From: a virus
Lineage: Duplodnaviria > Heunggongvirae > Uroviricota > Caudoviricetes
Strand: one strand, 5' to 3'
Length of the DNA: 19,354 nt
IMG/VR virus record: IMGVR_UViG_2537561977_000019
Span: 1-19,354 of that record
The notes beneath the pieces are model-generated. The model searched no databases. It saw only the letters and a list, made by a program, of their open reading frames with translations, and was not told the DNA's origin. Shown here piece after piece: positions 217 to 14,951 of this stretch. How positions within the stretch are numbered: position 1 is the stretch's first letter; the number at the start of each line of letters is the position of its first letter. Made by a program: the position numbers and the translations under genes.

Positions 217-250
217 ATCCCGCCCCCCGACAGACCTGTGCTATCGGAAA

Positions 251-282
251 GAAAAAAGGCCATCAGCAAAACTCTGATGGCC
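251..282 (-). terminator. Intrinsic terminator on the minus strand, 36 nt upstream of the holin start
   Basis: Perfect 9-bp stem GGCCATCAG (258-266) / CTGATGGCC (274-282) with a 7-nt loop; on the minus strand the hairpin is followed by TTTTTT (complement of A252-A257). Confidence 0.6.
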
Positions 283-391
283 TGAATCACCTTTACCAAT
301 ATTGTATGAAAAAACACGCACGTCTAATTGACAATAATTTTCATTTCCATTAAAAAAGATCGCGTAGCATTCTTAATTCATGAGGAACTTT

Positions 392-457
392 ACCCGCCAG
401 CAATCTGAGTAGCGAAAGCTGTTCATCCCCAATGTTTTTGCTGGCGGGTCCTTTTTT
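392..457 (+). terminator. Long inverted repeat followed by T6 (terminator-like, plus strand)
   Basis: 12-bp perfect arms ACCCGCCAGCAA (392-403) / TTGCTGGCGGGT (438-449) enclosing a 34-nt loop, followed by CC and TTTTTT (452-457). Confidence 0.4.
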
Positions 458-895
458 CTACGGTCCTCCTCCCCGGAGGGGGCATTTCATTATTTTTCTA
501 ATCGTTACTGGTGAGAAGGCGGAAGAAAAAGCCAGTTCTTCGCCCCTAAATAACAGCATGATTCCAGTCCATGCAAAATCTGATTTCCAGCTCACACATA
601 CCGAGCGCTGTACAAAAAACCGCCAGCCAAGGCAGTTAAGAGTGTGTTCCCGGGGTTTGCTTAGAATATTTTGTAAGTTGTCCGAAGAGATATTTACAAC
701 ACCAGAATGATGAATCATCAGTCCCCTGCCAGAGGTTCACTACGTAACCTGACCGACAATGCACCATTCTGGTGCTGAAAAAAGAGCACTGGAACTGCAA
801 CAAAACAACATCACAGAACAGGAGATGGTAAGGAGTCAGACATTCCCACACAATATTGTGTCAGTGCAAATAACAACCTTCGTCTCAAATCTCGC

Positions 896-970
<75 letters not shown>

Positions 971-973
971 ATA

Positions 974-1049
<76 letters not shown>

Positions 1050-1051
1050 GC

Positions 1052-1128
1052 TGGCCCACCACCGAGGACTCGAACCTCGCACCGTCAACTTAGAAGGTTG
1101 ATGCTCTATCCGGATGAGCTAGTGGTGG
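1052..1128 (-). tRNA. tRNA-Arg (anticodon UCU)
   Basis: 77-nt cloverleaf: acceptor CCACCAC/GTGGTGG (unusual C1-G72), anticodon stem TCAAC/GTTGA with loop CTTCTAA, T-arm CGAGG-TTCGAGT-CCTCG, encoded CCA. Confidence 0.7.
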
Positions 1129-1129
1129 T

Positions 1130-1205
1130 TGGTGGCCCTTGCTGGACTTGAACCAGCGACCTGGCGATTATGAGTCGCTCGCTCTCACCACTGAGCTAAA
1201 GGGCC
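1130..1205 (-). tRNA. tRNA with CAU anticodon (Ile2/ileX-like, or elongator Met)
   Basis: Acceptor GGCCCTT/AAGGGCC, anticodon loop CTCATAA, T-arm GCTGG-TTCAAGT-CCAGC, encoded CCA. Close to my memory of E. coli ileX; Ile versus Met identity cannot be decided from sequence alone. Confidence 0.75.
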
Positions 1206-1245
1206 GATAACATAATGATAACGTTACAGAATAAATTCAGCAATA

Positions 1246-2304
1246 TCACTCTCTCTTTCTGATTGAATTCTGTACATCTCTTGCGGTCTGCTCAAAACGT
1301 TCAGCCTCCAGCTCGACACCAATTGCACGACGCCCCAGCGCCATCGCTGCTTTGACTGTCGAACCGGACCCCATGAAGAAATCTGCAACCAGGTCACCCG
1401 GACGACTGCTGGCGGTAATCATTTGCCGCAACATATCTGCCGGTTTTTCACAGGGATGTTTGCCCGGATAATACTGCACAGGCTTGTGCGTCCAGACATC
1501 CGTATAAGGAACGGCTGCCGATACGGAAAAATAACGCCGCAGGGATTTGTACTCTTCCAGCAGGCTGGCATACTGCCGGTTCAGCTCACTGTATGTGCTG
1601 ACCAGTTGGTGATGTGGCTTTTCCAGTTCACCCCGCTGATGTTTCTCTTCTGCCACCCGGGCAAACAGCACCTGAAGTTTTCTGTAATCATCCTCATTCG
1701 GCAACTGCCACTGACTGGCACCAAACCAGTGGGAAACCATATTTTTCTTACCTGTGGCTTCGGCAATTTGTTTTGCCGTTATACCCAGTTCGGCACGAGC
1801 ATCCCTGAAATACGATATCAGCGGTGCCATTATGTGCTGTTTGAGTTCCCTTTCTTTTGCCGCATAGCCGTCACTTTTGCCGCGATATGGCCCCTGGTAA
1901 TGTTCAGCAAACAGAACGCGCTCTGTGGCAGGAAAATATGCGCGCAGACTTTCTTTATTACACCCATTCCAACGTCCGGACGGCTTCGCCCAGATGATAT
2001 GGTTAAGCACGTTGAAACGTTCACGCATCATGATCTCAATATCAGATGCCAGGCGATGCCCACAGAACAGGTAAAGGCTTCCGGCAGGTTTCAACACCCG
2101 CCAGAACTGGGCCAGACAGTGGTCCAGCCACTTAAGGTAATCTTCGTCCCCTTTCCACTGATTGTCCCAACCGTTAGGTTTCACCTTGAAGTAAGGCGGA
2201 TCGGTAACAATCAGGTCAATGGAATCATCAGGCAGGGACTGAATAAAATGCAGGCAATCAGCGTTGATTAAATCAACACTGTTTATTTTTACAGTATTTT
2301 TCAT
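1246..2304 (-). CDS. DNA methyltransferase, beta-class (N6-adenine or N4-cytosine), 352 aa
   Basis: Catalytic motif DPPY near the N-terminus (LIVTDPPYF) and the SAM-binding motif FxGxG near the C-terminus (DFFMGSGSTVKAA). ATG at 2304; no strong SD. Confidence 0.8.
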   Translation of the reverse strand: MKNTVKINSVDLINADCLHFIQSLPDDSIDLIVTDPPYFKVKPNGWDNQWKGDEDYLKWLDHCLAQFWRVLKPAGSLYLFCGHRLASDIEIMMRERFNVLNHIIWAKPSGRWNGCNKESLRAYFPATERVLFAEHYQGPYRGKSDGYAAKERELKQHIMAPLISYFRDARAELGITAKQIAEATGKKNMVSHWFGASQWQLPNEDDYRKLQVLFARVAEEKHQRGELEKPHHQLVSTYSELNRQYASLLEEYKSLRRYFSVSAAVPYTDVWTHKPVQYYPGKHPCEKPADMLRQMITASSRPGDLVADFFMGSGSTVKAAMALGRRAIGVELEAERFEQTARDVQNSIRKRE

Positions 2305-2454
2305 GGATCAGTAAGCGTAACTCTGGTAGGCTCACTCTGCTTTTGCGCTAAAGCAGTGGGCCGTGGTTCGCTTGTGACCAGTAAGCATGAGCGAATGGCT
2401 GGCAGGTGCTACCAACACCCACCAGCCGCCCATTTTCACAGCAGGAAACCGCCA

Positions 2455-2682
2455 TTACTGGCAGCGTCTGAATTTATTCCCGTACCCGCCGTTATCCTTC
2501 GCCAGACCCGCCAAAACTAACTGAGTCAGTATTAACTGGCACCGGGCTTCGCTTACTCCGGTAGTTCTCGTCATCATGCGTGGCGTTACCCACTTGTCAG
2601 CAGGTAAGAAATGAAGGACTGCGGCGGCGGTTTCTGTCATATCTTGCTGTTTTAGCATGTCTTTTTCCCTTCTGGTTAACAT
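2455..2682 (-). CDS. Small hypothetical protein (67-75 aa)
   Basis: ORF just downstream of the tR'-like terminator. Alternative ATG at 2658 has an AAGGG SD about 9 nt upstream. No recognisable motif. Confidence 0.45.
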   Translation of the reverse strand: MLTRREKDMLKQQDMTETAAAVLHFLPADKWVTPRMMTRTTGVSEARCQLILTQLVLAGLAKDNGGYGNKFRRCQ

Positions 2683-2778
2683 GACATACCAATAACTCTT
2701 GTCTAAAAATCCAGCAAGATAAAAAGTCAGTATTCACGACCACCAGCGTGTTTACTGTACTGCACCAAGTTTACAGGT

Positions 2779-2803
2779 ACAAAAACCCGCTCAGTGGCGG
2801 GTT
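2779..2803 (-). terminator. tR'-like intrinsic terminator downstream of Q
   Basis: Stem CCCGC (2786-2790) / GCGGG (2797-2801) with loop TCAGTG; on the minus strand it is followed by TTTTTGT (complement of 2779-2785). Confidence 0.5.
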
Positions 2804-2849
2804 CTTAAATCTTATCAACGGTAGACATACAAAGCCCATCGTTGGGAAA

Positions 2850-2878
2850 ATCTTATCCATATTTTTTGAAAAATGCAA
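2850..2878 (-). promoter_or_regulatory. Candidate late promoter (pR'-like) just downstream of Q
   Basis: Minus strand reads TTGCAT (complement of 2873-2878), a 17-nt spacer, then TAAGAT (complement of 2850-2855). It sits about 50 nt upstream of the tR'-like hairpin. Confidence 0.35.
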
Positions 2879-2909
2879 GCATCATGTCGCCATCTTCGGC
2901 AAAAATCAT

Positions 2910-3662
2910 TTATCTTGTCACTTTTCTCAATTGTGTCTCTGCATATGCTTCTTCCTGCCAGCACTTTGTAACCAGTTTATCAATGACATCTGCATATCCT
3001 TTGTACCACTGATAATCCGTCAGATCCGGTACCAGCTTCTGGACATGATGCCGCGCCAGTGTGGTTGGTAAACGGCTAAACCGGTTTCCATTGCAACGCC
3101 CACAAATCTTATAAACAGGCGCACCATGAAGCCGGGTTCTTTTTTCATCCAGTACAATACCTTTCCCCTTACACCCTCTACACGCTGTGCTGACCTCTCC
3201 CTTACCATGACAATGCTGACATAGTTCCTTCACCCACTCTTCCTTGATAACAGATTCCCCGCTTCTGGAGTGTTTCACCACTTCGCGCAATACATTATGA
3301 AATCCAGTACCAGCACAATGCTCACAGCGAGCCTTACTTGCCGCAGACCTGGAATAATCAGCAAAGGCAAAATTCACAAGGTAAGGGATGATCTGTAACC
3401 GGGTTTCTTCACTCAATTTGTTCAATGTCGGGTTATCCAGTGCCATCGCGTAATTGAGCAGACCTTCAATCGCAAACTGAGGATCCTGAACACCAACTTT
3501 TGCCAGGAATAAGGCAAACCCAAGCGGTGCTTTCGACTGCACCATCCCCTGCGCAGCCATTACATCCGTAATTGTTAAACCACCAGAGCCTGTCGCCGGT
3601 GCGTCATCGCTCAATTTTGGAGATTTTGGGGAGTAATATTTCGGTAAGGCTTCAAGGTTCAT
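2910..3662 (-). CDS. Q-type late antiterminator (about 250 aa, Cys-rich)
   Basis: Several CxxC pairs (CEHCAGTG, CQHCHGKG, CRGCKGKG, CGRCNGN). It is the last gene before the pR'/tR'-like pair and the lysis genes. ATG at 3662 has a GGAG SD 7 nt upstream; the ORF track's upstream start at 3692 is TTG and overlaps the preceding gene. Confidence 0.7.
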   Translation of the reverse strand: MNLEALPKYYSPKSPKLSDDAPATGSGGLTITDVMAAQGMVQSKAPLGFALFLAKVGVQDPQFAIEGLLNYAMALDNPTLNKLSEETRLQIIPYLVNFAFADYSRSAASKARCEHCAGTGFHNVLREVVKHSRSGESVIKEEWVKELCQHCHGKGEVSTACRGCKGKGIVLDEKRTRLHGAPVYKICGRCNGNRFSRLPTTLARHHVQKLVPDLTDYQWYKGYADVIDKLVTKCWQEEAYAETQLRKVTR

Positions 3663-3675
3663 GCTCGTTCTCCAC

Positions 3676-4671
3676 TTACGCCAGCACGCCAATTGCCAGC
3701 GCGCGATCGATAAAACGAAATATCAGCTCCAGCTGGGAGCCATACTTCTCTTCAAATGCCACGGTATCCGCATGCAGCTCGTCGTGATGCTTTCTGCACA
3801 AAGGCAACACAAAGAGGTCATGCGCTTTTGTACCCATCCCGCCCTGACCGTGGCCTATCAGGTGGTGGGGATCATCAGCAGGCTTTCCACAACATGCACA
3901 CGGCTGCGTCTTAACCCAGCGCGTGTACTTTTCGTTAACCCAGCGGCGACGTTTTGGGCGTAACATAAAAGACTCCGGCGACTCCGGATCCACTTTCAGC
4001 GCCAGCACCTTTTTCGCTTTATCCTGGATGATGCTGGTGGCAGGAACCGAAGGCACAAGGTCACTTTCCCGGGTGACAGACGGCACAACAGGCTTCGGTA
4101 ATCTCAGTGCCTTACGGGCTGCACTTTCCGGTAAGGCATCCGCCAGGTCATTACGAACCAGCCACCAGCACAGTTCCGGCATTGTCACAACGTGACTATC
4201 ATCAAAACCGAGATCCCGACGCACGACAGACAACACCCAGCGGGCACAGTTATCCGTTGCCATTGATTCCAGCCGTTCCGTGAATTGATCGCGCAGCTGG
4301 TTATCGCAGTGCCAGCACAGACGGATTGCGCCCGGCGCGTGTCGCATTGTGGTCATGTTCTCGCTGTGCCAGTCGGAATGAGGCCACTGGCAGCCTTTTT
4401 CACGAAGTAACCAGCTTTCAAGACATTCCACCCCACCAGCACGACGGATCACTGCCTCATTGCGGAACACGGCCCGAACGGCAGGATCATCCGCCAGCGG
4501 TTGTGATGCCGCCGGAACGGCACCACTGGCGAAAGATGAATAACGTTCCGGCTCAGGCTCCAGCAGGACACGCCCCTGCATAAACAGGGGCATCAGCTCT
4601 GAACCTGGCCTGAACAATACGATCCCCATACGCGGGGCAATTTCAGGGGTCAGTAGTGCTCTCACGGTCAC
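3676..4671 (-). CDS. DUF968-family protein with an HNH-like C-terminal motif
   Basis: 331 aa; the C-terminus carries CACCGKPADDPHHLIGHGQGGMGTKAHDLFVLPLCRKHHDELH. GTG start at 4671 directly after the upstream stop. Typical nin-region gene. Confidence 0.7.
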   Translation of the reverse strand: MTVRALLTPEIAPRMGIVLFRPGSELMPLFMQGRVLLEPEPERYSSFASGAVPAASQPLADDPAVRAVFRNEAVIRRAGGVECLESWLLREKGCQWPHSDWHSENMTTMRHAPGAIRLCWHCDNQLRDQFTERLESMATDNCARWVLSVVRRDLGFDDSHVVTMPELCWWLVRNDLADALPESAARKALRLPKPVVPSVTRESDLVPSVPATSIIQDKAKKVLALKVDPESPESFMLRPKRRRWVNEKYTRWVKTQPCACCGKPADDPHHLIGHGQGGMGTKAHDLFVLPLCRKHHDELHADTVAFEEKYGSQLELIFRFIDRALAIGVLA

Positions 4672-4672
4672 C

Positions 4673-5482
4673 TCAATGAACGGTATCGAGCAGCTTTAAC
4701 AGCTCAGGGAATCGGGATTCGAAGAAATGCGGCTGCGTCTCGCGCGGATTTGCGGGACTGGTGATGTTCTTGCCAAACATGCAGCCTTTCGCTGTCAGCG
4801 ACCAGAATTTTTTGATGTTGTTAATCGCGGTACGGCTGTATCGTTCGCGCTGCTCGACGATCCCCAGCTTCACCATCTGGTGATATGCCTGATTAGCCGT
4901 CAGGCGGATACCATACTGCTTCAGCAGTGCACTCAGTGACAGCGTGGGGCGGCTTGAGCCATCAGGCGCGTCAGCAGGAGCATCAATGGCATAGCGCGGT
5001 GCCAGATTCGGTAAGCCAACAGCCTCCTGGAGTTTCTGACAGGCCCCAAGCACTGAAGAGTTAGACAGGTTTAACTCCCTGCGCATAAAGTCCAGCAGGA
5101 TCACGCCAGCCTGCATCTTGTCAGCAGCCTGTCCGGATAATTTTTCCGGTGCGCTGGTTACCATATCGAAAGTACGGATCACCTTCAGATGGAATGACGG
5201 GCTGATCCACATTGCATAGGCATACACCAGTTCCTTGCAGACATACGTTCCCCGTTCATTTCCCCCATGAATCACACTCACCGGGTCAACACCCAAATTC
5301 TGGGTGTTGGTCAATTCATGAACAAGCTCAACAGTTTGTTGGCTGGAAAGAAACTTTCCCGGCTCCTTGGTTCTGGCATTTGCACCAGATGCTACTGCTG
5401 CGCGATGCAGATCGTTCAGGCTGTAACGCCCATAAGCATCACGACGAACTTCAATACCATCAATGACCATCAGATTATTCAT
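4673..5482 (-). CDS. KilA-N domain protein
   Basis: N-terminus MNNLMVIDGIEVRRDAYGRYSLNDLHRAA is KilA-N-like. ATG at 5482 has an AGGAG SD 8 nt upstream; the longer ORF start at 5515 would overlap RusA. Confidence 0.7.
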   Translation of the reverse strand: MNNLMVIDGIEVRRDAYGRYSLNDLHRAAVASGANARTKEPGKFLSSQQTVELVHELTNTQNLGVDPVSVIHGGNERGTYVCKELVYAYAMWISPSFHLKVIRTFDMVTSAPEKLSGQAADKMQAGVILLDFMRRELNLSNSSVLGACQKLQEAVGLPNLAPRYAIDAPADAPDGSSRPTLSLSALLKQYGIRLTANQAYHQMVKLGIVEQRERYSRTAINNIKKFWSLTAKGCMFGKNITSPANPRETQPHFFESRFPELLKLLDTVH

Positions 5483-5501
5483 ACTTCGTTTCTCCTCTTG
5501 A

Positions 5502-5891
5502 TCAGGCGGCTGCACCCGCCGTTTTCTCGTACTTACTGATAGTGATCTCGACCTTCCCTTTCGGGATAACCGGTCCCCACTCCACCAGCATTCTTTTCAC
5601 CTGACTGTCGTCTTCCCACACACCCGCGTGGGTCAGGGCGTCAAACAGCGCCTTGTTATAGTTGTCCAGATCGCGGATCCGGTTATCCGGAGGAAACAAC
5701 ACGATCTCCACTGAAGCAGGTGCCGACGTTGGTTTCGGCAGACGACGTAACTGCTCAACTATTGCTGCGCACGCCGCGCTCTGGAATTTTCGCCCCGCCG
5801 AGCTTATCAGGCTCTTACCAGCAAACGCCCCTTTGTTGGAGTGTCGCCAGTACGTGTTCACGCTGGGCGGAAAAGGCAGGATCAGCTTCAT
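5502..5891 (-). CDS. rusA: RusA-family Holliday junction resolvase
   Basis: 129 aa with RusA hallmarks (LPFPPSVNTYWRH ... RDLDNYNKALFDALT ... DDSQV). ATGA overlap with the upstream gene. Confidence 0.85.
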   Translation of the reverse strand: MKLILPFPPSVNTYWRHSNKGAFAGKSLISSAGRKFQSAACAAIVEQLRRLPKPTSAPASVEIVLFPPDNRIRDLDNYNKALFDALTHAGVWEDDSQVKRMLVEWGPVIPKGKVEITISKYEKTAGAAA

Positions 5892-6214
5892 ACTTTCAGG
5901 TCCCTCTCATGTAACCAGTGGGTTGCACGCAGCCTTGCGTTTTCCTCACCGGCAAGCAGTGCGCGGATAATCCCGACCGCCTCGCTGTCGTCGTCCTTCA
6001 CCGCGGTATGAAGCGTTATCCCCCGGGCCACGCCACGCTTTATCGTGATGACGCCTTTTTTCTCCAGTGCGCGAAGATGCTCCACCGCTGCATTCACTGA
6101 ACGGTATCCCAGCATGGTTGCCACCTCCTGATTGGTTGGCGGGAAGCCACGTTCTTTCTGATAAGAAATCAGCATATCCAGCACCTGCTGCTGGCATTGA
6201 GTTAACGTCGTCAT
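5888..6214 (-). CDS. LexA-like winged-helix DNA-binding domain protein with no peptidase domain
   Basis: The first ~70 aa align with the LexA N-terminal domain (LTQCQQQVLDML ... PPTNQEVATMLGYRSVNAAVEHLRALEKKGVITI ... ARGITL). The 108-aa protein lacks the S24 Ser/Lys protease domain. ATGA overlap with the Dam gene. Confidence 0.7.
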   Translation of the reverse strand: MTTLTQCQQQVLDMLISYQKERGFPPTNQEVATMLGYRSVNAAVEHLRALEKKGVITIKRGVARGITLHTAVKDDDSEAVGIIRALLAGEENARLRATHWLHERDLKV

Positions 6215-6864
6215 GCCGCCATCTCCCTGACCAGTTTTTCCGCCTGCTGGCGAACCTGCGCCAGAAACGCCTCACCACATGCCTCAAGTTCATCGCGCCC
6301 GATGTAGCTGATTGCCGGTCCCTTCCAGGTCTTATCGAAAACAGCAATAGCACCAGCGAAGAAAGCGCCTGTCGGCACCTGCTTCTCATCCTTCGGGATA
6401 AACCAGGCAGGCAGTTCAAAACCAATACGCCCGCGAATAAAAGCAATATGGTCCGCATCTTCCGGCCACCACACTTCGCTGGTGGCAGCTTTGATCAGGA
6501 AAACATAGCGCCCACCCTTATCACGCATGGCACTGGCATGTTTCATGATGTAACGCATGCCGGTGATGTATTGCCCCTCATGCTGACTGGCGCGGCTGTA
6601 TGGGGGATTACCAAAGGCAGCCCCTTTAAGCTCCGCAAGACGTTCTGACCAGTCATGCGCCAGCGCGTTGTCTTCCGCCGTGTAATACGCAGCACATTTG
6701 GCGTTATCACCGTCAGTGAACAGATCCAGAACAAACGGGCCAAACAGGGTGTTAATTCCCCAGAAAATGTTGTCCGGCGTGCGCCACTGATCACCCACTT
6801 CCTTCAGTTCATGGGCTGGTTTGTTCCTCAGTTCCACCAGCTCCTGGCAATATTTATTACTCAT
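6211..6864 (-). CDS. Phage Dam-family N6-adenine DNA methyltransferase
   Basis: NPPY motif (AAFGNPPYS) in a ~217-aa protein. ATG at 6864 overlaps the upstream stop (TAATG); an alternative GTG lies at 6897. Confidence 0.8.
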   Translation of the reverse strand: MSNKYCQELVELRNKPAHELKEVGDQWRTPDNIFWGINTLFGPFVLDLFTDGDNAKCAAYYTAEDNALAHDWSERLAELKGAAFGNPPYSRASQHEGQYITGMRYIMKHASAMRDKGGRYVFLIKAATSEVWWPEDADHIAFIRGRIGFELPAWFIPKDEKQVPTGAFFAGAIAVFDKTWKGPAISYIGRDELEACGEAFLAQVRQQAEKLVREMAA

Positions 6865-7352
6865 TAAGCCCCCACGTAATTCCCTGACAGATACCACTCA
6901 TCACCCGATACAGCGCGCTTGCTGCTTTTCCGTAAACACTGCTCACGACGCGCCAGAAAATTGTTTCGTTCTGGCTGGGAGTGGCTTTCACGGAATGCCG
7001 CCATCCACACCGTTGCAGCACGACGGTATAAGCCCCTGGACTCCAGTTCTTCCGCCTGGCGGGTCAGGCACAAAATCACCCGGGGATCGTTAGTGCCGAC
7101 ATAGAAATTGCGCACAGGTCTGGTTTCACGAACTGGTTGTGGTTCCGGCTCCTGCGCTCTCTCAGTCAGGCGTGGGAAATGTCTGCGTGTATCTCCTTCA
7201 CAACGGTGAGCCACACGCCCACTCTGACGTAACTTGCTTGCTGACTGCAGAACGCGCTGCCGTGAGTAACCTGCAAAAGCATCCGCAATGTCTCCGGAAG
7301 TACACCCCGGATGGGCTTCAATGAATTTCTGAACGTCATTCAAAAGACTCAT
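6864..7352 (-). CDS. Hypothetical phage protein (about 162 aa)
   Basis: ORF starts 3 nt after the O-like stop (ATG 7352, AGGGG SD) and is coupled to the downstream Dam gene. Arg-rich; no confident family. Confidence 0.5.
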   Translation of the reverse strand: MSLLNDVQKFIEAHPGCTSGDIADAFAGYSRQRVLQSASKLRQSGRVAHRCEGDTRRHFPRLTERAQEPEPQPVRETRPVRNFYVGTNDPRVILCLTRQAEELESRGLYRRAATVWMAAFRESHSQPERNNFLARREQCLRKSSKRAVSGDEWYLSGNYVGA

Positions 7353-7354
7353 GA

Positions 7355-8173
7355 TCACCCCCTGAATCCTGCCGGGATCTGGCTGTAGTCCACGTTGTCG
7401 TAACTGGCTTTGAAGTACGGGTCCTCGCGTCTGGCTGCAGATACCGCAGGAACTTCCCAGGATTCTTCGAAATGACGATCCGGACCAAAGAACGTGACAG
7501 CCTGTTTCACAAATTGTGTGCCGCTGTTACCCATCGCAGATACCCAGCCCGCGTAGCGTTTCACACCTTCCAGCATGGTTTCGGGGTTTACCCCCTCATT
7601 CAAACGGGCTTTCCAGGCTTTGAAGGCTGCAGATTTTGAATTGCCACCAGCACGTTTGGGATAGGCCAGCCATGCCTGCTCAAACTCCGGAGAGTATTCC
7701 GGTCGGTTTGAACTAACTCGCACAGACTCATCAGCAGATGCACCAACAGCTATTGGTTCATTGACTGGTTCTTTGACTGGTTCAAAAGAGTGACTGGTTC
7801 TGGGTGAATCTCCTGCACTACCCCCTAGTGCAACTCCTGCACTACCTGGTGAATTTGCTGCACCAGATAGTGAATTATTTGCACTACCCCCTAGTGAATC
7901 TCCTGCACCATCCAGATGAAGGAGATAGATATTACTTGAGTTACCTTTTTCACCTTTCCGGGTGACTTTTTTTACCAGCCCGGACTCACAAAGGGCCGCA
8001 ATATGATTCATCACAGAACGTTTGCTAATCTCGCACTGGTCAGCAATATGCTGGTAGCTGGGCCAGCACTCACCCTGATCGCTGGCATTATCAGCCAGCT
8101 TGATCAGAACCAGTTTTCGCAATGGATTACCCACTCGAATTTTCATCGCTTTAACCATCAGCTCCATACTCAT
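7355..8173 (-). CDS. Replication initiator, O-like (N-terminal winged-helix, Gly/Ser/Ala-rich linker)
   Basis: N-terminus LRKLVLIKLADNASDQGECWPSYQHIADQCEISKRSVMNHIAALCESGLVKK resembles phage replication-initiator HTH domains. The linker is encoded by repetitive DNA, as iterons are in lambda O. ATG at 8173 in an ATGA overlap. Confidence 0.65.
   Translation of the reverse strand: MSMELMVKAMKIRVGNPLRKLVLIKLADNASDQGECWPSYQHIADQCEISKRSVMNHIAALCESGLVKKVTRKGEKGNSSNIYLLHLDGAGDSLGGSANNSLSGAANSPGSAGVALGGSAGDSPRTSHSFEPVKEPVNEPIAVGASADESVRVSSNRPEYSPEFEQAWLAYPKRAGGNSKSAAFKAWKARLNEGVNPETMLEGVKRYAGWVSAMGNSGTQFVKQAVTFFGPDRHFEESWEVPAVSAARREDPYFKASYDNVDYSQIPAGFRG
7761..7910. repeat. Iteron-like direct repeat cluster inside the O-like gene (candidate origin)
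   Basis: TGACTGGTTC occurs three times (7762-7771, 7774-7783, 7791-7800); GTGAATCTCCTGCAC twice (7804-7818, 7894-7908); TGCACTACCCCCTAGTG twice (7814-7830, 7880-7896); CTCCTGCACTACC also at 7835-7847. Confidence 0.5.
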
Positions 8174-8394
8174 GCTGCACCTCCGAGATGCTTCATGTTT
8201 TTTCCGGAGCGAAAGGCTATAAGCGGCATACTGACGCGGTAATTACGGCCCAGCGGTTCACAAATCACCTTCTGACATTCACGGTCAACCAGGCTAACAC
8301 GTAGAACATGCCCTGCAGGCGTGGTGTACCACTGACCCGGACGAGGACAACGGAAAGTCTGATTGGTAAAACGTTTGAAAATATTCCGGATCAT
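8170..8394 (-). CDS. Small hypothetical protein (74 aa), possibly DUF4222-like
   Basis: ATGA overlaps at both ends (8391-8394 and 8170-8173) place it in the coupled early-right operon. The family guess is from a weak motif memory only. Confidence 0.45.
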   Translation of the reverse strand: MIRNIFKRFTNQTFRCPRPGQWYTTPAGHVLRVSLVDRECQKVICEPLGRNYRVSMPLIAFRSGKNMKHLGGAA

Positions 8395-9554
8395 TTACGC
8401 CCCCTTACCTCTGAAGGGTTCAGCGACAAATTTATGAGACTGGCCAGTAGCGCCGCGTCGTTGATGCGGTCATACAGACTTACAGCCAGCGGGGATTCGG
8501 CTTTTGCCAACATGGGATAAAGCTGCTGCAGCCAGACCTGATGAATTGATGAAATGTAGGAATAGAGAACGCTGGCGTTATGTGCAACGTCGCTCAGTAC
8601 AGAGGGATTTGAAAGCTGTTTCTCCATCTGGTTAAAGGCATTGATGTATGCCTCTTTGAACCGGGCAGCACGTTTACCCGTGAAACCCATAGCAAGAAAC
8701 GCAAAGCCGTCGCGGGTTATTTGATAGCAAGGAAGTTTGCGAGTACCGCCGTTGGGCTGGCGTACCAAAATTGATGTCTCCGCAAAATTGCGGGCACAAA
8801 ACTCTGGAGAACAATCCAAAATGCGGATCTTTTTCAGAACATCGTCATGACGTTTAGAGAAGAAGTCAGCAACAGCCAAAGAAGATGTAACAGCCTGACC
8901 ATCAACGATGGCAATTTCAGGTTGAGAGAGGGTTGGGAGAGTAGTCATGGTGACAGCCCCGGTAGTCAGTTTTTTAGAAAACTCACCACATGGGACGCCA
9001 ATCACAGAGGTGGTGAGACGTACAGGGTTGGCGTTACCGGAGACTACCGAACCCGGCCCGACCGAAGTCGGCCCTGTACGCCCCACCATAATTTGGGCGT
9101 AGCAATGCTCATGACACGAAAAAACCGCATGAGCGCGGTTATGCTCAGTAATCAATTTCAGGACGCCAATCCCGGCACCCGTTTTATAAGGTGCCTGAAC
9201 AGTGTAACGTCCCGGAATGGCAGAATCAATGTGCTGGTGGTCCTTCACACTCAACAAAATCACGCCTGAATTTCCACAAAGGACTAAAGCACTCATGCGG
9301 GTAGTCTTTGCGAAGATAGATAACGCGCTGTGTTTCTGGCTCCCAACGAATAACATGAACATAAAGTCCTCTTCCGTCACGAAACCAGCGGTTAAGTTCC
9401 TGCACAACTCGCCCCCCACAGTCAGGTAAAGTTCTCTGTGGTTACTTACAGCCAGGTGATTTGGTAATCTGCATTCATGCCGTAACAACAGGTGTGCAGC
9501 GACACTGACCACCAGCTGTTGCGACAAACGGTTATTTGCCGTTAAACTGTTCAT
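8391..9554 (-). CDS. Rha-family regulatory-domain protein with a ~200-aa N-terminal extension of unknown function
   Basis: Residues ~205-330 match the Rha pattern (AVADFFSKRHDDVLKKIRIL ... RDGFAFLAMGFTGKRAARFKEAYINAFNQME). ATG at 9554 overlaps the upstream stop (ATGA) with a GGAG SD; the frame stays open for 387 codons. An internal ATG at 8948 would give an Rha-only protein. Confidence 0.6.
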   Translation of the reverse strand: MNSLTANNRLSQQLVVSVAAHLLLRHECRLPNHLAVSNHRELYLTVGGELCRNLTAGFVTEEDFMFMLFVGSQKHSALSIFAKTTRMSALVLCGNSGVILLSVKDHQHIDSAIPGRYTVQAPYKTGAGIGVLKLITEHNRAHAVFSCHEHCYAQIMVGRTGPTSVGPGSVVSGNANPVRLTTSVIGVPCGEFSKKLTTGAVTMTTLPTLSQPEIAIVDGQAVTSSLAVADFFSKRHDDVLKKIRILDCSPEFCARNFAETSILVRQPNGGTRKLPCYQITRDGFAFLAMGFTGKRAARFKEAYINAFNQMEKQLSNPSVLSDVAHNASVLYSYISSIHQVWLQQLYPMLAKAESPLAVSLYDRINDAALLASLINLSLNPSEVRGRK

Positions 9555-10135
9555 GCGTTAGTTTCTCCACAACCAGAAGCAATCGACGCCACGACGCCCG
9601 GAGCTGCACACTCGCGGGCGTTACTCTTTTCCGGCGCACAAAAAACACGAAATAACAGTGTTAAATGCTCCTGCCACTTCGCCATTACTTGGTAGCTGTT
9701 CTCTTCGATTTGCTCACGCTCAGCTTGGTCAATAACTCCATCAGCAGTTGCCTTGCGTAAGTACTGGGAATGCTTGCCAATCCATTCTATTGACTCCATC
9801 AGCCGCTGATTAATGTCACCATTGTCAATGTCATCAATGACCACCAGCGGCACAAACACCCCATTACTACGACGGGCTATTGCATCTGTTACATGCCTGG
9901 TACCACTGGCATCCTGTAAAACCATGGCCCACTCAAGTGGAAAAATTTGATCCCCACCGCTACGCAGTCTGTTATGCAATTGATCTTTTGCTGGGGTGAT
10001 ATCATCAGATTTATACAAACCAAGAATTTCTGCTGCTTCCTCATAGCCATGAGGTAAATCAGCAATCGTTCTTCGTATTGCTGCCACCAGCCATGCTGGT
10101 TGTTTATCAACTTTCCATTCAGGTTCTTTACCCAC
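9551..10135 (-). CDS. Regulator in the cII position (possibly YdaT-like), about 195 aa
   Basis: GTG at 10135 has a GAGGA SD 7 nt upstream and lies 28 nt after the cro stop. The ORF track's upstream ATGs (10246, 10213) have no SD and would overlap cro. Function is inferred from position only. Confidence 0.45.
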   Translation of the reverse strand: MGKEPEWKVDKQPAWLVAAIRRTIADLPHGYEEAAEILGLYKSDDITPAKDQLHNRLRSGGDQIFPLEWAMVLQDASGTRHVTDAIARRSNGVFVPLVVIDDIDNGDINQRLMESIEWIGKHSQYLRKATADGVIDQAEREQIEENSYQVMAKWQEHLTLLFRVFCAPEKSNARECAAPGVVASIASGCGETNA

Positions 10136-10163
10136 GGTTAATTCCTCATTTCTGTGGTTACGT

Positions 10164-10427
10164 TTACGCAGCTGAACCGCTAACTTTTGAATAGCACTCA
10201 GGTAATCCATCATTTGGATTGGGGTAAATATCAGGACGCAGTTCATGAGGGGTCACGGACCAGTTTCCCAACTCACAAAGTTGTAAAACCCGTTCTGACG
10301 GGACTTGATTGTTAATTACCCAATTAGCGACGGATTGAGTGGACTTAAAACCAAAGCGACGGGCTACTTCAGATAAAGATTTTCCCGCAGCTTTTACTGC
10401 TTTCTCTGTGTAGTTTTGAGATGACAT
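10164..10427 (-). CDS. Cro-like HTH regulator (YdaS-like)
   Basis: 87 aa with an HTH segment (LSEVARRFGFKSTQSVANWV), divergent from the CI-like gene; GAGGAG SD before the ATG at 10427. Confidence 0.75.
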   Translation of the reverse strand: MSSQNYTEKAVKAAGKSLSEVARRFGFKSTQSVANWVINNQVPSERVLQLCELGNWSVTPHELRPDIYPNPNDGLPECYSKVSGSAA

Positions 10428-10533
10428 ACCTTTCTCCTCTGAAATTCAGAGGGATAATGCTACTTAAAATAGCAAAATGCAACTACTTAAAATAGAAATG
10501 ACTAGCGTATGTGATGTGAGTAATCTTCTACCT
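10428..10533. promoter_or_regulatory. Immunity-region operator/promoter interval (OR with divergent pR and pRM)
   Basis: 106-bp interval between divergent cro-like and cI-like starts. Contains two exact 13-bp direct repeats CTACTTAAAATAG (10460-10472, 10483-10495). Minus strand carries TTGCAT-17-CATTAT as a pR-like element. Confidence 0.5.
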
Positions 10534-11238
10534 ATGGTAGAAGAACAGAAGTATCCAGATTTCGCCAAGAGACTAAACGAGCTAATGACAAACAAGGGAA
10601 TTTCTGTCACCCAACTCAAAAGTCTTGTGGGCGTTACATATGAAATGGCGCGGCGATACACAATCGGCGCTGCGAAGCCTCGTGCCTCTGTCATGAATAA
10701 ACTTGCATTGGCTCTGGGGGTATCAGCTTCATATTTAGAATATGGTGTTGGCGAGAGAGAAGGATGTAAGGAAATGACAAGCATCCCCAATCCAACAAAA
10801 CCCGATGTATACAGGATAGAAGTTTTGGATCTTAGCGTTAGCGCAGGACCTGGGACCTATATGCTTTCAGACTATGTTGATGTGCTCTACGCCATTGAGT
10901 TCACAACAGAACATGCCCGTTCTCTTTTCGGCAACCGTTCTCAGGATGATATTAAGGTTATGACTGTAAATGGCGATAGTATGTCCCCTACTCTCGTTTC
11001 CGGAGACCGACTGTTTGTCGACATTTCTGTTCGTCACTTCCAGACTGATGGAGTTTACTCTTTCGTTTACGGTAAGACTTTTCATGTCAAACGTCTTCAA
11101 ATGCAAGGTGACAAGCTAGCCGTTCTTTCGGATAACCCCGCCTATGAGAAATGGTATATCGATGAAAAATCGCAGGATCAGCTTTATGTAATGGGCAAGG
11201 CGTTGATTCACGAATCTATAAAATACAACCGATTGTAA
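10534..11238 (+). CDS. CI-like prophage repressor (HTH plus S24 LexA-like peptidase domain)
   Basis: N-terminal HTH (FAKRLNELMTNKGISVTQLKSLVG) and C-terminal S24 motifs (VNGDSMSPTL ... GDRLFVD ... KRL). Start is uncertain: in-frame ATGs at 10477, 10498 and 10534, none with an SD, consistent with a leaderless pRM transcript. Confidence 0.8.
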   Translation: MVEEQKYPDFAKRLNELMTNKGISVTQLKSLVGVTYEMARRYTIGAAKPRASVMNKLALALGVSASYLEYGVGEREGCKEMTSIPNPTKPDVYRIEVLDLSVSAGPGTYMLSDYVDVLYAIEFTTEHARSLFGNRSQDDIKVMTVNGDSMSPTLVSGDRLFVDISVRHFQTDGVYSFVYGKTFHVKRLQMQGDKLAVLSDNPAYEKWYIDEKSQDQLYVMGKALIHESIKYNRL

Positions 11239-11282
11239 AACTCAATCCTTTCAGGATTAAAAGATCTAAAAGGATAATAATA

Positions 11283-11690
11283 ATGAAATCTGAACTATTT
11301 CATAACGAAGCAAATTCAGAAATTATCACCGCAGATGAGTTTATTGATTTCATAAACTCTTTCAAAAAGCCTTTAATTTGCCAAATTTGCGGAAATCAAT
11401 CATGGAGTGTAGTCGGTACTCTAGAACTTGAAGTTGAAGACAATCAGCCAAAACATCACGTAATCGAAGTTCTCAGCTATGCCCAATACAAACCTGAAAC
11501 TGATAGCGCTATAAATTATCCTGGTGGTATGCCGCTGTTTCGAATCACCTGTGATCACTGTGCACATGTACTTCTTTTTTCTTATAAAAAAGCTAGATCA
11601 TTGATCCAAAAAAGAAAAATGAAAAAGAAGAGGATGGGAAATGACGCGACCTTATCTCAGAGCAGTACCAAACTGTGGATCTGGTATTGA
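11283..11690 (+). CDS. Hypothetical Zn-ribbon protein (135 aa) in an AT-rich cassette co-oriented with cI
   Basis: ATG at 11283 with an AAGGA SD, 45 nt after the cI stop. Two CxxC pairs (CQICGN and CDHC) and a basic C-terminus. AT-rich composition by eye. Confidence 0.55.
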   Translation: MKSELFHNEANSEIITADEFIDFINSFKKPLICQICGNQSWSVVGTLELEVEDNQPKHHVIEVLSYAQYKPETDSAINYPGGMPLFRITCDHCAHVLLFSYKKARSLIQKRKMKKKRMGNDATLSQSSTKLWIWY

Positions 11691-12273
11691 TAAGTGTGAC
11701 CTTTACCCCAATGTTAAGAACAGGCTGCGCGTCGGTATAGAAGAAATGTATACTGATTTTATCGAATCCGCAGATGAAACTTACAAAACTGATGGGGGAA
11801 ATAAAATGTCATCAGTTAGTCGAGAAGAAATTCAAGCACTTTTAGCTGCCAATAAAGCAGAAATGGAGTCCATTGCATCCTCTATTAGAGTTGAAATGGC
11901 TTTATCTCGCGAGAACACAAACGTTCAGCTAGCATCTCTAAATTCAGCCATCAATTCTATCTCTTCGAAAATCGAAGGCAAAATGGACAGTGTTGACGGG
12001 GATGTGAAGGCCATCAATGGTAGATTCGAAGGTATACAAGGCCAAATTACTGGAATAAATACAGCCATTAGTGGTATTCAATCTGGAATTTCTACCAGAC
12101 TTGCTATTTTTGGAGTTATCATTGCGGTCATAGTTGCATTACCTAGCATAATTTCTGCTTTTAAAGATACTTCGCCAGTAGTTCAACCAGTTACACAACA
12201 ACCAAGTGTTAAACATCTCAACCAAGAACCAATTACTCCACAAGTATTACCTCCGCAGGGAAAAGCAAACTAA
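11641..12273 (+). CDS. Hypothetical coiled-coil protein with a single C-terminal transmembrane helix
   Basis: Two candidate starts, each with a good SD: 11641 (GAGGA, overlaps the previous ORF by 50 nt) and 11806 (GGGGGA). Heptad-like Ser/Ile/Gly repeats, then LAIFGVIIAVIVALPSIISAF and a Pro/Gln-rich tail. Confidence 0.55.
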   Translation: MTRPYLRAVPNCGSGIDKCDLYPNVKNRLRVGIEEMYTDFIESADETYKTDGGNKMSSVSREEIQALLAANKAEMESIASSIRVEMALSRENTNVQLASLNSAINSISSKIEGKMDSVDGDVKAINGRFEGIQGQITGINTAISGIQSGISTRLAIFGVIIAVIVALPSIISAFKDTSPVVQPVTQQPSVKHLNQEPITPQVLPPQGKAN

Positions 12274-12297
12274 ACCGGCTTTATGCCGGTTTTTTTC
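12274..12297 (+). terminator. Intrinsic terminator ending the cI-linked cassette
   Basis: Stem ACCGGC (12274-12279) / GCCGGT (12285-12290), loop TTTAT, followed by TTTTTTC. Confidence 0.75.
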
Positions 12298-12399
12298 TAT
12301 ACAAACGCCCCCTCTTTGTCTTGAATCACATCACAACACATTTAAAAAACATTTTAAATTCAAAGCATTAAACGCATCAACGCATATCAAACAAATTAT

Positions 12400-12448
12400 C
12401 TACTTTTAGTTGTTGATTTTTGCTACTTTTGGTAGCAGAATTATTTTA
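12400..12448 (+). promoter_or_regulatory. Candidate pL/OL: plus-strand promoter overlapping operator-like sites
   Basis: TTGCTA (12420-12425), 16-nt spacer, TATTTT (12442-12447). Overlaps CTACTTTTGGTAG (12423-12435) and sits next to CTACTTTTAG (12400-12409), both sharing the CTACTT...TAG ends of the OR repeats. Confidence 0.4.
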
Positions 12449-12520
12449 ACGACAACGAACAGGCAGGACGCCCACGAAGTAGCCGCCTGGGGCATATGAA
12501 GTCCAGGATGATTCGTTAGC

Positions 12521-12547
12521 AACAAAAAAGCGCCCTACAGGACGCTT
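12521..12547 (-). terminator. Intrinsic terminator for the convergent minus-strand gene
   Basis: Stem AAGCG / CGCTT with a 10-nt loop, followed on the minus strand by TTTTTTGT. Confidence 0.45.
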
Positions 12548-12585
12548 AGCTCTTTAACAATCTGGATATCCACAACAGTAGTAAT

Positions 12586-13077
12586 CTACAGATTGCCGTT
12601 AAGTTTTCTGGACAACTCCTCAATGGATGGAGGCGATACGTAATCCGGATTTTTATTCATCAGAAACTTATTTTCACAGTGGAGGCACCTGCTTTTATGA
12701 AAAAGCTCATCTTCGCTAACCGGGAATGGTTGAAGTATCGATACTATCTTTTGTCCAAAACATTTTGGGCAAAGATGCATGGTTATGCTGCCACCGTTCA
12801 CGATTACCTCCTTCGAGTATACAAAAGTACCCGACTCAAGTTGGTTAAGGATATAGCCTTCCGTCTGAGCCTCAAAGTTTTCGAATTCTGCAATTTTAGC
12901 TTTGAGAGAAGCATTTATTTCTTGATAAGAGCCCACCAGTTCAACGAGAGACACGCATTCGCGCTGAATAGACGCAAGCTTTGAGTTCAGCTCACCAATA
13001 GCCGCATTTACTTCAGCTTGAGTTTTTGCCTCGTTCATTAGTTTTGCAATCTGGGCTGTTTCACGAATAGCCGTCAT
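12586..13077 (-). CDS. Hypothetical coiled-coil protein with a C-terminal Zn-ribbon (about 163 aa)
   Basis: AT-rich ORF convergent on the cI cassette. Likely start ATG 13077 or GTG 13101 (AAGAG SD); the longer ORF-track N-terminus is Arg/Pro-rich and judged non-coding. C-terminus HLCPKCFGQ ... CLHCENKF. Confidence 0.5.
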   Translation of the reverse strand: MTAIRETAQIAKLMNEAKTQAEVNAAIGELNSKLASIQRECVSLVELVGSYQEINASLKAKIAEFENFEAQTEGYILNQLESGTFVYSKEVIVNGGSITMHLCPKCFGQKIVSILQPFPVSEDELFHKSRCLHCENKFLMNKNPDYVSPPSIEELSRKLNGNL

Positions 13078-13115
13078 TGCTGCCGTTAATTCAGCGATCA
13101 CATTGAATACTCTTA

Positions 13116-13169
13116 TTGTTGTTGGGGATATCCAGATTAACCGAATCCTTGTTGTTGGGGAATAACCAG
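13116..13169. repeat. Tandem direct repeat TTGTTGTTGGGGA-TA-CCAG (two copies)
   Basis: 13116-13135 TTGTTGTTGGGGATATCCAG and 13149-13169 TTGTTGTTGGGGAATAACCAG, just upstream of the minus-strand gene start. Confidence 0.4.
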
Positions 13170-13388
13170 GTCCACCTCGCCTGATGTGGCTAAAAGCAGG
13201 CACATAACAGCTAAGTATTTTCAACCAGAGAGAATCCTTAGCGTTGTGGTGAATGCGGCTCAGCGCACGCGGGTTAAGGTTGAGGCTGACAGTCGACCTT
13301 CTGTGGATACCCACCCGTCTGGTGTGCAACCTTCGCCAGGCACCGGGAGGCACCCGGCACCACAACTTTATGCTGTGTGTAGTCCTGG

Positions 13389-13433
13389 CGGTACCAGTTT
13401 GTACCCTTGCTTCCGGCTGGTACCGTCCTTTTT
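13389..13433 (+). terminator. Terminator-like hairpin with T-tract in the early-left leader
   Basis: 9-bp arms CGGTACCAG (13389-13397) / CTGGTACCG (13417-13425), then TCCTTTTT. About 140 nt upstream of the first early-left gene. Confidence 0.4.
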
Positions 13434-13570
13434 ACAAAACAGAGAAGAGCATCACCGGACGACGGGCTCATAACCCAATCCATCCGGGCGGCTGCCACCG
13501 CAGGTGTTCTTCTCTGTTTTGTGGAGAAACCAACCGGCCTTGCAGGGTCGATATGATGAGGAGCAGCAAA

Positions 13571-13933
13571 ATGGCTAGCGAACGCAGTACTGATGTGCAG
13601 GCATTTATCGGGGAGTTGGACGGCGGCGTATTTGAAACCAAAATCGGCGCAGTTCTCAGTGAAGTCGCTTCAGGTGTGATGAACACGAAAACCAAAGGTA
13701 AGGTCTCACTCAACCTGGAAATCGAACCATTTGATGAGAACCGTGTGAAAATCAAACACAAACTCTCATATGTTCGCCCGACTAACCGCGGGAAAATTTC
13801 CGAAGAAGACACCACCGAAACGCCGATGTATGTCAATCGCGGTGGTCGCCTGACTATTCTGCAGGAAGACCAGGGACAATTACTGACTCTTGCCGGTGAA
13901 CCTGACGGAAAACTCCGCGCAGCAGGTCATTAA
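13571..13933 (+). CDS. Hypothetical early-left protein, YfdP-like (about 120 aa)
   Basis: ATG 13571 with a GAGGAG SD; the longer ORF-track N-terminus is GC-rich leader. Family name is a tentative match based on size and gene order. Confidence 0.5.
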   Translation: MASERSTDVQAFIGELDGGVFETKIGAVLSEVASGVMNTKTKGKVSLNLEIEPFDENRVKIKHKLSYVRPTNRGKISEEDTTETPMYVNRGGRLTILQEDQGQLLTLAGEPDGKLRAAGH

Positions 13934-13998
13934 TATCGTTCTTAATTAACCGATTATTTATCTCATCACTGAATATCTTTATATAGTGAGGACTTATT

Positions 13999-14823
13999 AT
14001 GTCTCAGAACTTAGACGCAACCGCAATTAATCAAATCCATGCCCTTATTTCTGCTCAGGGTGTTAATGAAATTATCAGTAAGATTGGTGCCGATGCTGTG
14101 GCATTACCTGAAAATTTCCGCATTCATGATCTGGAAAAATTTAATTTAAATCGCTTCCGTTTCCGTGGTGCGCTTTCCACTGCCAGCATCGATGACTTTA
14201 CCCGTTATTCTAAAGATCTTGCAGATGAAGGCACCCGCTGCTTTATCGATGCCGATAATATGCGTGCCGTCAGTGTGCTTAACCTGGGTACTATTGATGA
14301 ACCAGGTCACGCAGATAACACTGCCACTCTCAAACTGAAAAAGACAGCACCGTTCTCTGCTCTGTTGTCTGTTAACGGCGAGCGTAACTCCCAGAAGTCA
14401 CTGGCAGAATGGATTGAAGACTGGGCCGACTACCTTGTGGGCTTTGATGCTAATGGTGACGCCATTCAGGCAACCAAAGCGGCTGCGGCGATCCGTAAAA
14501 TCACAATTGAAGCGAACCAGACCGCTGATTTTGAAGATAATGACTTCAGCGGCAAACGCTCCCTGATGGAGTCTGTCGAAGCGAAGACCAAAGACATTAT
14601 GCCTGTGGCATTTGAATTTAAATGCGTTCCGTTTGAAGGTCTGAAAGAACGTCCGTTTAAATTACGCCTCAGCATTATCACTGGCGATCGTCCTGTACTG
14701 GTTCTGCGCATTATTCAGCTGGAAGCGATGCAGGAAGAAATGGCTAACGAATTTCGTGATCTGCTTGTTGAGAAATTCAAAGACAGCAAAGTAGAAACCT
14801 TTATTGGTACTTTCACCGCCTGA
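13999..14823 (+). CDS. YfdQ-like (DUF2303) protein, 274 aa
   Basis: ATG 13999 with a GAGGA SD. Size and neighbours (HD-domain gene next) resemble the yfdPQRS prophage block; family recalled, not computed. Confidence 0.6.
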
Positions 14824-14951
14824 TTTCATTACTGCAAATGCCCCTGCGGGGGCATTTATGGAAACGTAATTAACTCAATAATCACCGGATGGTGAGAGCT
14901 TCCTTTTAGCAGAATTCAGCGCGGTGCAGCGCATATAAAGTGGAGAACGAA

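Follow-up and report, generated by a model that had tools for sequence, protein, structure and literature searches.

In bacteriophage lambda, dimers of the initiator O bind four 18-bp dyad iterons inside gene O, and the resulting O-some opens the adjoining tract (PMC5043065). The lambda iterons are spaced 20, 24, and 23 bp apart and are followed by 40 bp with a G+C fraction (GC) of 0.22. In P22, a rep_origin is annotated inside gene 18. An iteron origin inside an initiator gene is a textbook arrangement. Here, we describe such a locus in a 19,354-nt stretch of DNA (IMG/VR record IMGVR_UViG_2537561977_000019, positions 1 to 19,354; hereafter the window), which is the early region of a lambdoid Escherichia coli prophage of the SfV/ST64B/'Eru6' type. 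From comparison with homologues, we consider it probable (about 75%) that positions 7754–7908 are a cis-acting phage replication origin inside the linker-coding part of its own initiator gene. We favor this reading because the iterons and the element that abuts them behave as DNA-level signals and occupy the usual place of lambdoid origins. Annotations of several phages already list this gene as coding for a replication protein. In the literature searched, the iteron array of this HTH_36 module, its series of recognition helices and half-sites, and its GAACCAGTCA element are undescribed; a mention in the SfV genome paper or in a 2006 review of phage replication modules is possible.

The same gene in the same neighborhood (Rha/Ash, a small open reading frame (ORF), the initiator, a PerC-like gene, and Dam) is found in SfV (orf39), ST64B (sb42), cdtI (orf46), and the 'Eru6' phage Stx2a_WGPS2 at 89 to 99% nucleotide identity, and relative to these phages only the repeat number differs. 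Their records annotate a replication or helix-turn-helix (HTH) protein and no origin. Stx2a_WGPS2 is the reference phage of the 'Eru6' replication type (PMC8951638).

Like ori-lambda, the putative origin lies inside the initiator gene, between the parts encoding the N-terminal DNA-binding domain (N-domain) and the C-terminal domain (C-domain). It contains several dyad sites (about 18–19 bp in lambda) at 20–24 bp spacing, its iteron specificity travels with the N-domain, and a second element follows immediately downstream in gene orientation. Unlike lambda, the window has five iterons rather than four, a direct-repeat element of GC 0.44 in place of the 40-bp tract of GC 0.22, and no P-like gene, the downstream genes being PerC-like and Dam. 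The initiator has no match to Pfam Phage_rep_O, and its similarity to lambda O and P22 gp18 is not significant (the best blastp match to O has E = 0.019 and is not colinear). A preliminary description of the window, made from its letters alone, had proposed an ori-lambda-like arrangement in an O-like gene; the layout holds, whereas membership in the lambda O Pfam family does not. The order of parts is also that of ori-P22 (gene 18, with the gp12 helicase). Unlike the window, gp18 has a lambda-O-type N-domain and different iterons; the window C-domain is of another type and is not accompanied by a gp12-like helicase gene. P22 gene 18 was considered as a member of the family and rejected, its N-domain being different.

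Results

Dyad iterons and a direct-repeat element in the initiator gene

The locus comprises the following features, with iterons numbered in gene orientation.

7355–8173, minus strand: replication initiator gene, an ORF of 272 amino acids plus stop
7894–7908: iteron 1, first in gene orientation, core GTGAATCTCCTGCAC on the plus strand
7870–7884: iteron 2, core GTGAATTATTTGCAC
7849–7863: iteron 3, core GTGAATTTGCTGCAC
7828–7842: iteron 4, core GTGCAACTCCTGCAC
7804–7818: iteron 5, the last, core GTGAATCTCCTGCAC, abutting the invariant element
7754–7803, minus strand: GAACCAGTCA direct-repeat element, which reads CCAGAACCAGTCACTCTTTTGAACCAGTCAAAGAACCAGTCAATGAACCA on the minus strand

The iteron array (7804–7908) consists of five 15-bp dyad cores of the form GTGMA-N5-TGCAC with center spacings of 24, 21, 21, and 24 bp. 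The half-sites of an iteron are 10 bp apart, and the 21–24 bp between centers corresponds to about two helical turns. The pattern GTGMANNNNNTGCAC occurs five times on the plus strand (at 7804, 7828, 7849, 7870, and 7894) and nowhere else in the 19.3-kb window, against a chance expectation of 0.2; none of 200 shuffles reached the six matches found on both strands. Iteron 4, which matches on both strands, extends to a perfect 7-5-7 dyad (TAGTGCA-ACTCC-TGCACTA, 7826–7844). A repeat search and Tandem Repeats Finder (TRF) recovered the same arrays together with a 66-bp higher-order duplication, and no other iteron-like array was seen in the window by TRF or pattern search.

The repeats are present where the preliminary description had placed them, far above chance (0 of 200 shuffles). 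It had sorted them into three interleaved families of 10–17 bp, a count and layout that give way to two adjacent arrays, at 7754–7803 and 7804–7908. The two longer families are variants of a single iteron plus the 66-bp duplication. The 10–12-bp repeat, taken there for an iteron family, is an element of a different type that is invariant throughout the family.

Neighboring near-palindromic iterons also form a 26-nt imperfect inverted repeat (7826–7886, 81% complementary), which could in principle extrude as a cruciform. A far sub-threshold Rfam match to mir-875 is a product of this inverted repeat of adjacent iterons and was rejected. Near-identical prophages of E. coli and Shigella differ in repeat number, and their proteins are 242 to 302 amino acids long, with one or two iterons in the forms of 242–251 amino acids, five in the window, and eight in cdtI, which has an additional 66-bp unit. 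One homologue (P0024) carries runs of a 21-bp unit, and some forms, including some Stx2c phages, gain or lack one 12-bp GAACCAGTCAAn unit.

Iterons across homologous initiators

Homologues were picked by N-domain homology alone, yielding 18 annotated phages and 80 prophage loci from one-genome-per-species contigs; the set used for counting has 96 loci (15 phage loci, 80 contig loci with one genome per species, and the window). The hosts are Gammaproteobacteria and include Enterobacterales, Pseudomonas, Aeromonas, Shewanella, Vibrio/Aliivibrio, Marinomonas, Pasteurellaceae, and Marinobacter. Nearly all loci have three to eight tandem units (mode 5) straight after the winged helix, each with a 15-bp 5-N5-5 dyad core. 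An automatic test detected at least three contiguous iterons in 83 of the 96 loci, and 311 of 327 center-to-center spacings are 21–24 bp. Spacings need not be multiples of three, pairs of 23 and 22 bp bringing the reading frame back. The encoded peptides are unrelated among lineages (GAGDS, PPMPPES, GMPADST, VVTQSH, and others). Both orientations of the near-palindrome occur within one array, for example in Pseudomonas loci, and the exact 15-mer of the window, GTGAATCTCCTGCAC, recurs in Vibrio phage 236O40-1 and in Shewanella prophages inverted relative to the gene and in another frame. The preliminary description had asked whether homologues keep the protein and lose the DNA repeats; the opposite is seen, with repeats kept while peptide, orientation, and frame vary. 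Because the dyad core and its phasing are what is retained, the iterons appear to be DNA-level rather than peptide-level signals.

The half-site also follows the recognition helix (amino acids 49–58). Helices of the S[KR]RS[VA][MI]NH type accompany the half-site GTGMA, SRSTVKSH accompanies GGGCA, and TRTTAINH accompanies GTGTA. Counted by locus, with phylogeny ignored, Arg at amino acid 56 (SKRSVMRH, [DK]RRTAMRH) goes with GTGAC in 7 of 7 loci and is found in 0 of 65 loci of the GTGMA class, and the helix [CI][SA]KS[AT]V goes with TGCCR in 6 of 6. Iterons of the form GTGAC-N5-GTCAC are those of the Erwinia, Izhakiella, and mEp044 types. C-domains and downstream partners are mosaic (no partner, DnaC plus DnaB, DnaB alone, a primase-helicase, or a P-like protein), and the unit of N-domain plus iterons is intact in all mosaics. 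In natural chimeras (P0060, P0071, and P0072), a foreign N-domain with its own iteron type is joined to a C-domain of the window type. Since the half-site covaries with the recognition helix and the two are coinherited when C-domains are swapped, the comparison shows the five iterons to be the predicted cognate sites of the initiator's N-terminal winged helix.

An invariant element abuts the last iteron

The second array holds three and a half copies of GAACCAGTCA, with full copies at 7791–7800, 7774–7783, and 7762–7771 and a half copy at 7754–7759; TGACTGGTTC occurs exactly at 7762, 7774, and 7791. A 37-nt core conserved throughout the family, CCAGAAYCAGTCACTCTTTTGAAYCAGTCAAWGAACC (7767–7803), directly follows the last iteron. 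In most homologous loci the last iteron ends right at CCAGAAC, with a last spacing of 24. Anchor matches to the element were found in 94 of the 96 loci selected by N-domain, and the element aligns without gaps in 83. In these 83 loci, eight third codon positions (R, T/I, S, H, S, E, P, and V) are 94 to 100% conserved, and variation sits on codon positions 1 and 2 (T/I, H/N, P/S). Strictly conserved N-domain residues of the same loci use two to six synonymous codons with a mean majority-codon frequency of 0.49, which indicates saturation at synonymous sites in this domain. The element is translated in other frames in Shewanella, Parashewanella, Aliivibrio, Avibacterium, and Vibrio 236O40-1, where 13–16 nt rather than 17 separate its first two copies. 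Third-position conservation and the use of other frames place the constraint on nucleic acid; throughout the family, the comparison shows it as an apparent constraint on DNA and not on peptide. Scanning IMG/VR with a pattern returned at least 120 further instances of the element, with the same architecture in 88 of 91 unique contexts.

The GC of the element is 0.40–0.46 across homologues while that of the hosts is 0.41–0.59; held constant in this way, the element is locally the least G+C-rich part in GC-rich hosts. A promoter scan found no sigma-70-like promoter, Rfam contains no family matching the element, and no DnaA box, integration host factor (IHF), or Fis consensus was recognized in it by eye. 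One terminator-like hairpin on the antisense strand is at chance level and was rejected. In the natural chimeras, the junction lies exactly at RTSHSFEPVKEPVNEP, at the GAACCAGTCA element, so the element is also an observed crossover point for module exchange. Some database proteins have the N-domain and linker fused to PerC, Dam, RusA, or other domains (P0025, P0028, P0041, P0047–P0050, P0067, P0075); these are likely to be deletion derivatives or to stem from defective prophages, with ends that fall within or close to the repeats.

Elements resembling parts of ori-P22

Eight loci have an ori-P22-type G/C palindrome (CCCCCTWACCCCC...GGGG) located 26–43 bp past the element's start and read in all three frames. 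Examples are Stenotrophomonas phage BUCT709 and prophages of Izhakiella, Aeromonas, and Cardiobacteriaceae. The palindrome of the P22 locus is at 2464, and the window itself has none. Because it is read in all three frames, the palindrome would be another DNA-level origin component shared with P22 gene 18, and its presence in eight loci ties the family to an annotated origin architecture. By eye, BUCT709 and mEp044 appear to share a P22-type C-domain. In P22-like origins the last iteron is followed directly by GAATCAGTCAAAC (or GAAACAGTCAAAC), about 83 nt after the N-domain; the 10-mer of the element is part of this sequence. Since the sequence at this place is also similar to a degenerate half-iteron of P22 (GAATCGGTAAAAC), the GAATCAGTCA 10-mer there may be homologous to the element or match it by coincidence.

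Domains of the initiator

The domain boundaries of the 272-residue product, taken from Pfam and an AlphaFold2 (AF2) model, are as follows.

7919–8173, minus strand: N-terminal winged-helix DNA-binding domain, amino acids 1–85 (Pfam HTH_36 and AF2)
7703–7903, minus strand: disordered interdomain linker, amino acids 91–157 (AF2), which holds both repeat arrays
7358–7702, minus strand: C-terminal domain, amino acids about 158–272, helical in AF2

HTH_36 (PF13730) matches amino acids 17–67 above the gathering threshold (44.1 bits against a cut-off of 25) and is present in all close homologues. The N-domain model has helices at residues 3–11, 17–28, 40–47, and 51–64 and a β-hairpin at 67–85, with predicted local distance difference test (pLDDT) values of 71–94 as means of 10-residue blocks; the recognition helix is at about residues 51–64. 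Foldseek returned only generic winged helices for the initiator, including the DnaD N-terminal structure 2v79 at E = 0.03, a match no better than many winged helices, and the DnaD N-terminal family PF21984 scores 24.3 bits, below its cut-off of 27. A PDB sequence search gave only low-complexity noise, and Rep_3 was not matched.

The repeats had been described as lying between the HTH domain and the C-terminal domain, in a low-complexity Gly/Ser/Ala/Asn linker, and on both counts the models agree. In the ORF at 7355–8173 on the minus strand, the iterons encode amino acids 89–123, between the N-domain and the C-domain, and the segment encoded by the repeat arrays is rich in Gly, Ser, Ala, and Asn within a region (amino acids 91–157) that AF2 predicts to be disordered (pLDDT below 50).

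The full-length product matches the PHROG family phrog_270, 'replication initiation protein', at 4e-88. The C-domain matched no Pfam or NCBIfam family, and Foldseek returned nothing informative for it; PHROG matches of this part fall in the C-terminal portions of the 'replication protein' and 'DnaD-like helicase loader' families. The same C-domain occurs in PhiR49_2, where DnaC-like and DnaB-like genes follow; in AsXd-1, the genes downstream of the corresponding C-domain are annotated only as hypothetical. The C-domain is presumed to be a helicase-recruitment domain.

Gene neighborhood and distribution

The initiator lies in an early region with the following genes.

10477–11235, plus strand: cI-type repressor
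10167–10427, minus strand: cro
Between cro and the Rha/Ash gene in listed order, minus strand: cII-like gene
8394–9554, minus strand: Rha/Ash regulator
8173–8394, minus strand: 74-amino acid ORF, phrog_1153
2913–3692, minus strand: Q

The stop of the 74-amino acid ORF overlaps the initiator start codon, and this ORF is kept upstream of the initiator in SfV, cdtI, PhiR49_2, and PhiR63_1. After the initiator, the minus strand encodes, in order, a PerC/YfdN-like protein, Dam, a LexA-like repressor, RusA, a regulator, an HNH protein, Q, and a DNA methyltransferase.

The initiator gene has 98 to 99% nucleotide identity to SfV orf39 and to its counterparts in cdtI, mEp460, several Stx2c phages, and Stx2a_WGPS2 (98.8% over the entire gene for the last, AP012537.1), and 89% identity to ST64B sb42. 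On this identity, the window initiator is taken to be the same gene as SfV orf39, ST64B sb42, and the 'Eru6' HTH protein of Shiga toxin (Stx) phages. The window has both marks of 'Eru6', near-identity to the HTH_36 gene of Stx2a_WGPS2 and a Rha/Ash gene on the cI side (8394–9554). Part or all of the gene was found in 2718 of 5426 complete E. coli genomes, at up to five copies per genome. Only 897 of the complete genomes carry at least 80% of it, which implies that many copies are truncated remnants. A protein search returned 5430 homologues, and the label given by the Prokaryotic Genome Annotation Pipeline is merely 'helix-turn-helix domain-containing protein'.

Discussion

A replication origin, as the preliminary description had suggested for this region, is supported by the comparison with homologues and remains our preferred reading of 7754–7908. 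In the mechanism that we propose, one initiator dimer would bind each iteron, and the dimers, on one face of the helix, would form an O-some-like complex. This complex would act on the abutting invariant element to open the DNA. In place of the A+T-rich region of ori-lambda and ori-P22, the element would be a sequence-specific site for strand opening and for assembly of the initiator or replisome. The C-domain would bring the helicase, presumably host DnaB–DnaC in this module, and, as in lambda, early rightward transcription from the cro side would cross the origin. Within this scheme, the specific role given to the element is tentative. Its extension to the whole family is a conjecture on which we would not insist: that the GAACCAGTCA element is a sequence-specific opening or assembly element common to all HTH_36-type phage initiators of Gammaproteobacteria, read either by a universal host factor or by some conserved initiator part that may bind single-stranded DNA, with iterons diversifying by a simple recognition-helix code in which, for example, Asn56 to Arg would switch GTGCA to GTGAC.

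Several observations weigh against the origin reading. The preliminary description had called for a check for an adjacent AT-rich unwinding element, and the outcome is negative. No classical A+T-rich unwinding element adjoins the iterons; the 50 bp after them, the element, have GC 0.44 and reach only about the 71st to 87th stability percentile. Duplex stability is lowest on the opposite side of the iterons.

7914–7953: least stable duplex segment of the gene, a 40-mer of GC 0.33, at the 97.5th percentile of the window by nearest-neighbor stability

This segment sits on the N-domain side of the iterons, opposite the element. It is a candidate alternative unwinding region; its GC follows host GC in homologues, so it is not clearly a conserved signal. 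The spacer of 13–17 nt within the element is poorly compatible with a rigid double-stranded site. The interval from cro to Q (window 2900–10450) contains no gene for a helicase, helicase loader, or primase, which leads us to call the module 'initiator-solo'. The disregard of phylogeny in the covariation counts belongs here as well, as does a 2022 survey stating that nothing was known on the replication of 'Eru' Stx phages (PMC8951638).

The alternatives that survive best concern the element alone. It may instead be a host-factor site, a crossover point for module exchange, or a segment under dual DNA and peptide constraint (an RTSHSFEPVxEP docking motif), possibilities that we rate as rather doubtful. 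In their favor, the element is not especially A+T-rich, it is independent of both iteron specificity and helicase partner, chimeras are joined exactly at it, and its peptide frame is kept in most lineages (81 of the 83 ungapped matches). A host-factor site is opposed by the failure to recognize a known consensus by eye and by the lack of a sigma-70-like promoter, while recombination alone is unlikely to have fixed 37 bp over more than ten genera with saturated flanks. Selection on the peptide alone is ruled out, given the conserved third positions and the use of alternative frames. The GAATCAGTCA 10-mer is also found after the last iteron of P22-type origins, whose initiator N-domain differs, and this would favor another role for the element; its resemblance to the P22 half-iteron means that the match may be coincidence.

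An improbable alternative assigns the dyad repeats a mainly regulatory role as initiator sites, either as an autoregulatory roadblock or in copy control by handcuffing, with the origin elsewhere. In plasmid Rep systems, dimers on inverted repeats act at operators while monomers fire origins (PMC5043065). The sites of the window are inside a transcribed gene, and close relatives have anywhere from one to eight or more of them, a range that might be too wide for an essential origin. Yet the lambda iterons are likewise dyads bound by O dimers and form an origin, and TRF and the pattern search showed no other iteron-like array in the window. Moreover, a second conserved DNA element invariably adjoins the array, joined in some lineages by a P22-type palindrome, and a pure operator needs neither. 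That the repeats are a by-product of a slippage-prone low-complexity linker without DNA function, as predicted disorder and the polymorphic repeat number (proteins of 242–302 amino acids) might suggest, is contradicted by dyad symmetry, 21–24 bp phasing, the inverted 15-mer in another frame, and covariation with the helix, none of which a peptide needs, and we give this explanation almost no credence.

For the combination of an invariant block with specific iterons that we propose for the origin, the closest functional analogue found would be the origins of pHW126 and pIGRK. These contain a family-wide element, CR, of roughly 20 bp and four iterons, both needed in cis, and a winged-helix Rep (RepR) is reported to bind CR and iterons (PMC6854812). 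Unlike the window, pHW126 and pIGRK are small plasmids whose origin is outside rep, and they are suspected of rolling-circle replication. The homology comparison was limited to the N-domain search, among whose plasmid records pIGRK was not found.

The plasmid collection was also considered as a natural test of autonomous replication and set aside, the hits being phage-sized circles or phage-plasmids. The Arsenophonus example is uninformative because it also carries RepL and another Rep gene. The iteron-plasmid Rep systems (RepA, RepE, pi, TrfA), with direct-repeat iterons that monomers bind, an origin outside rep, and a WH1-WH2 protein of the Rep_3 type, differ from the window, in which the sites are dyads, the origin would be inside the gene, and the initiator lacks a Rep_3 match.

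A more distant likeness is to bacterial oriC and to plasmid unwinding elements. The basal unwinding system of oriC reportedly consists of a DnaA box, a GC cluster, and DnaA-trios (Richardson et al. 2016), and plasmid Rep is said to bind one strand of the unwinding element sequence-specifically (Wegrzyn et al. 2014). The likeness lies in a double-strand initiator site followed, at a fixed distance, by short direct repeats read as sequence. Unlike at oriC, the initiator has no AAA+ domain and the repeat unit is 10–12 nt rather than 3 nt; binding to single-stranded DNA is hypothetical in the window family.

The initiator module is very common: half of the searched complete E. coli genomes contain it, as do SfV, ST64B, cdtI, and several Stx2-converting phages. 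The location of the probable origin is a concrete target for studying or blocking prophage replication, a driver of Shiga-toxin gene dosage. The family is a natural series of paired recognition helices and half-sites for studies of winged-helix specificity, and its invariant element is an apparent case of DNA-level selection overriding codon degeneracy within a gene. The element may show how an origin can open when it has no A+T-rich tract and when, as in this module, the phage encodes no helicase loader.

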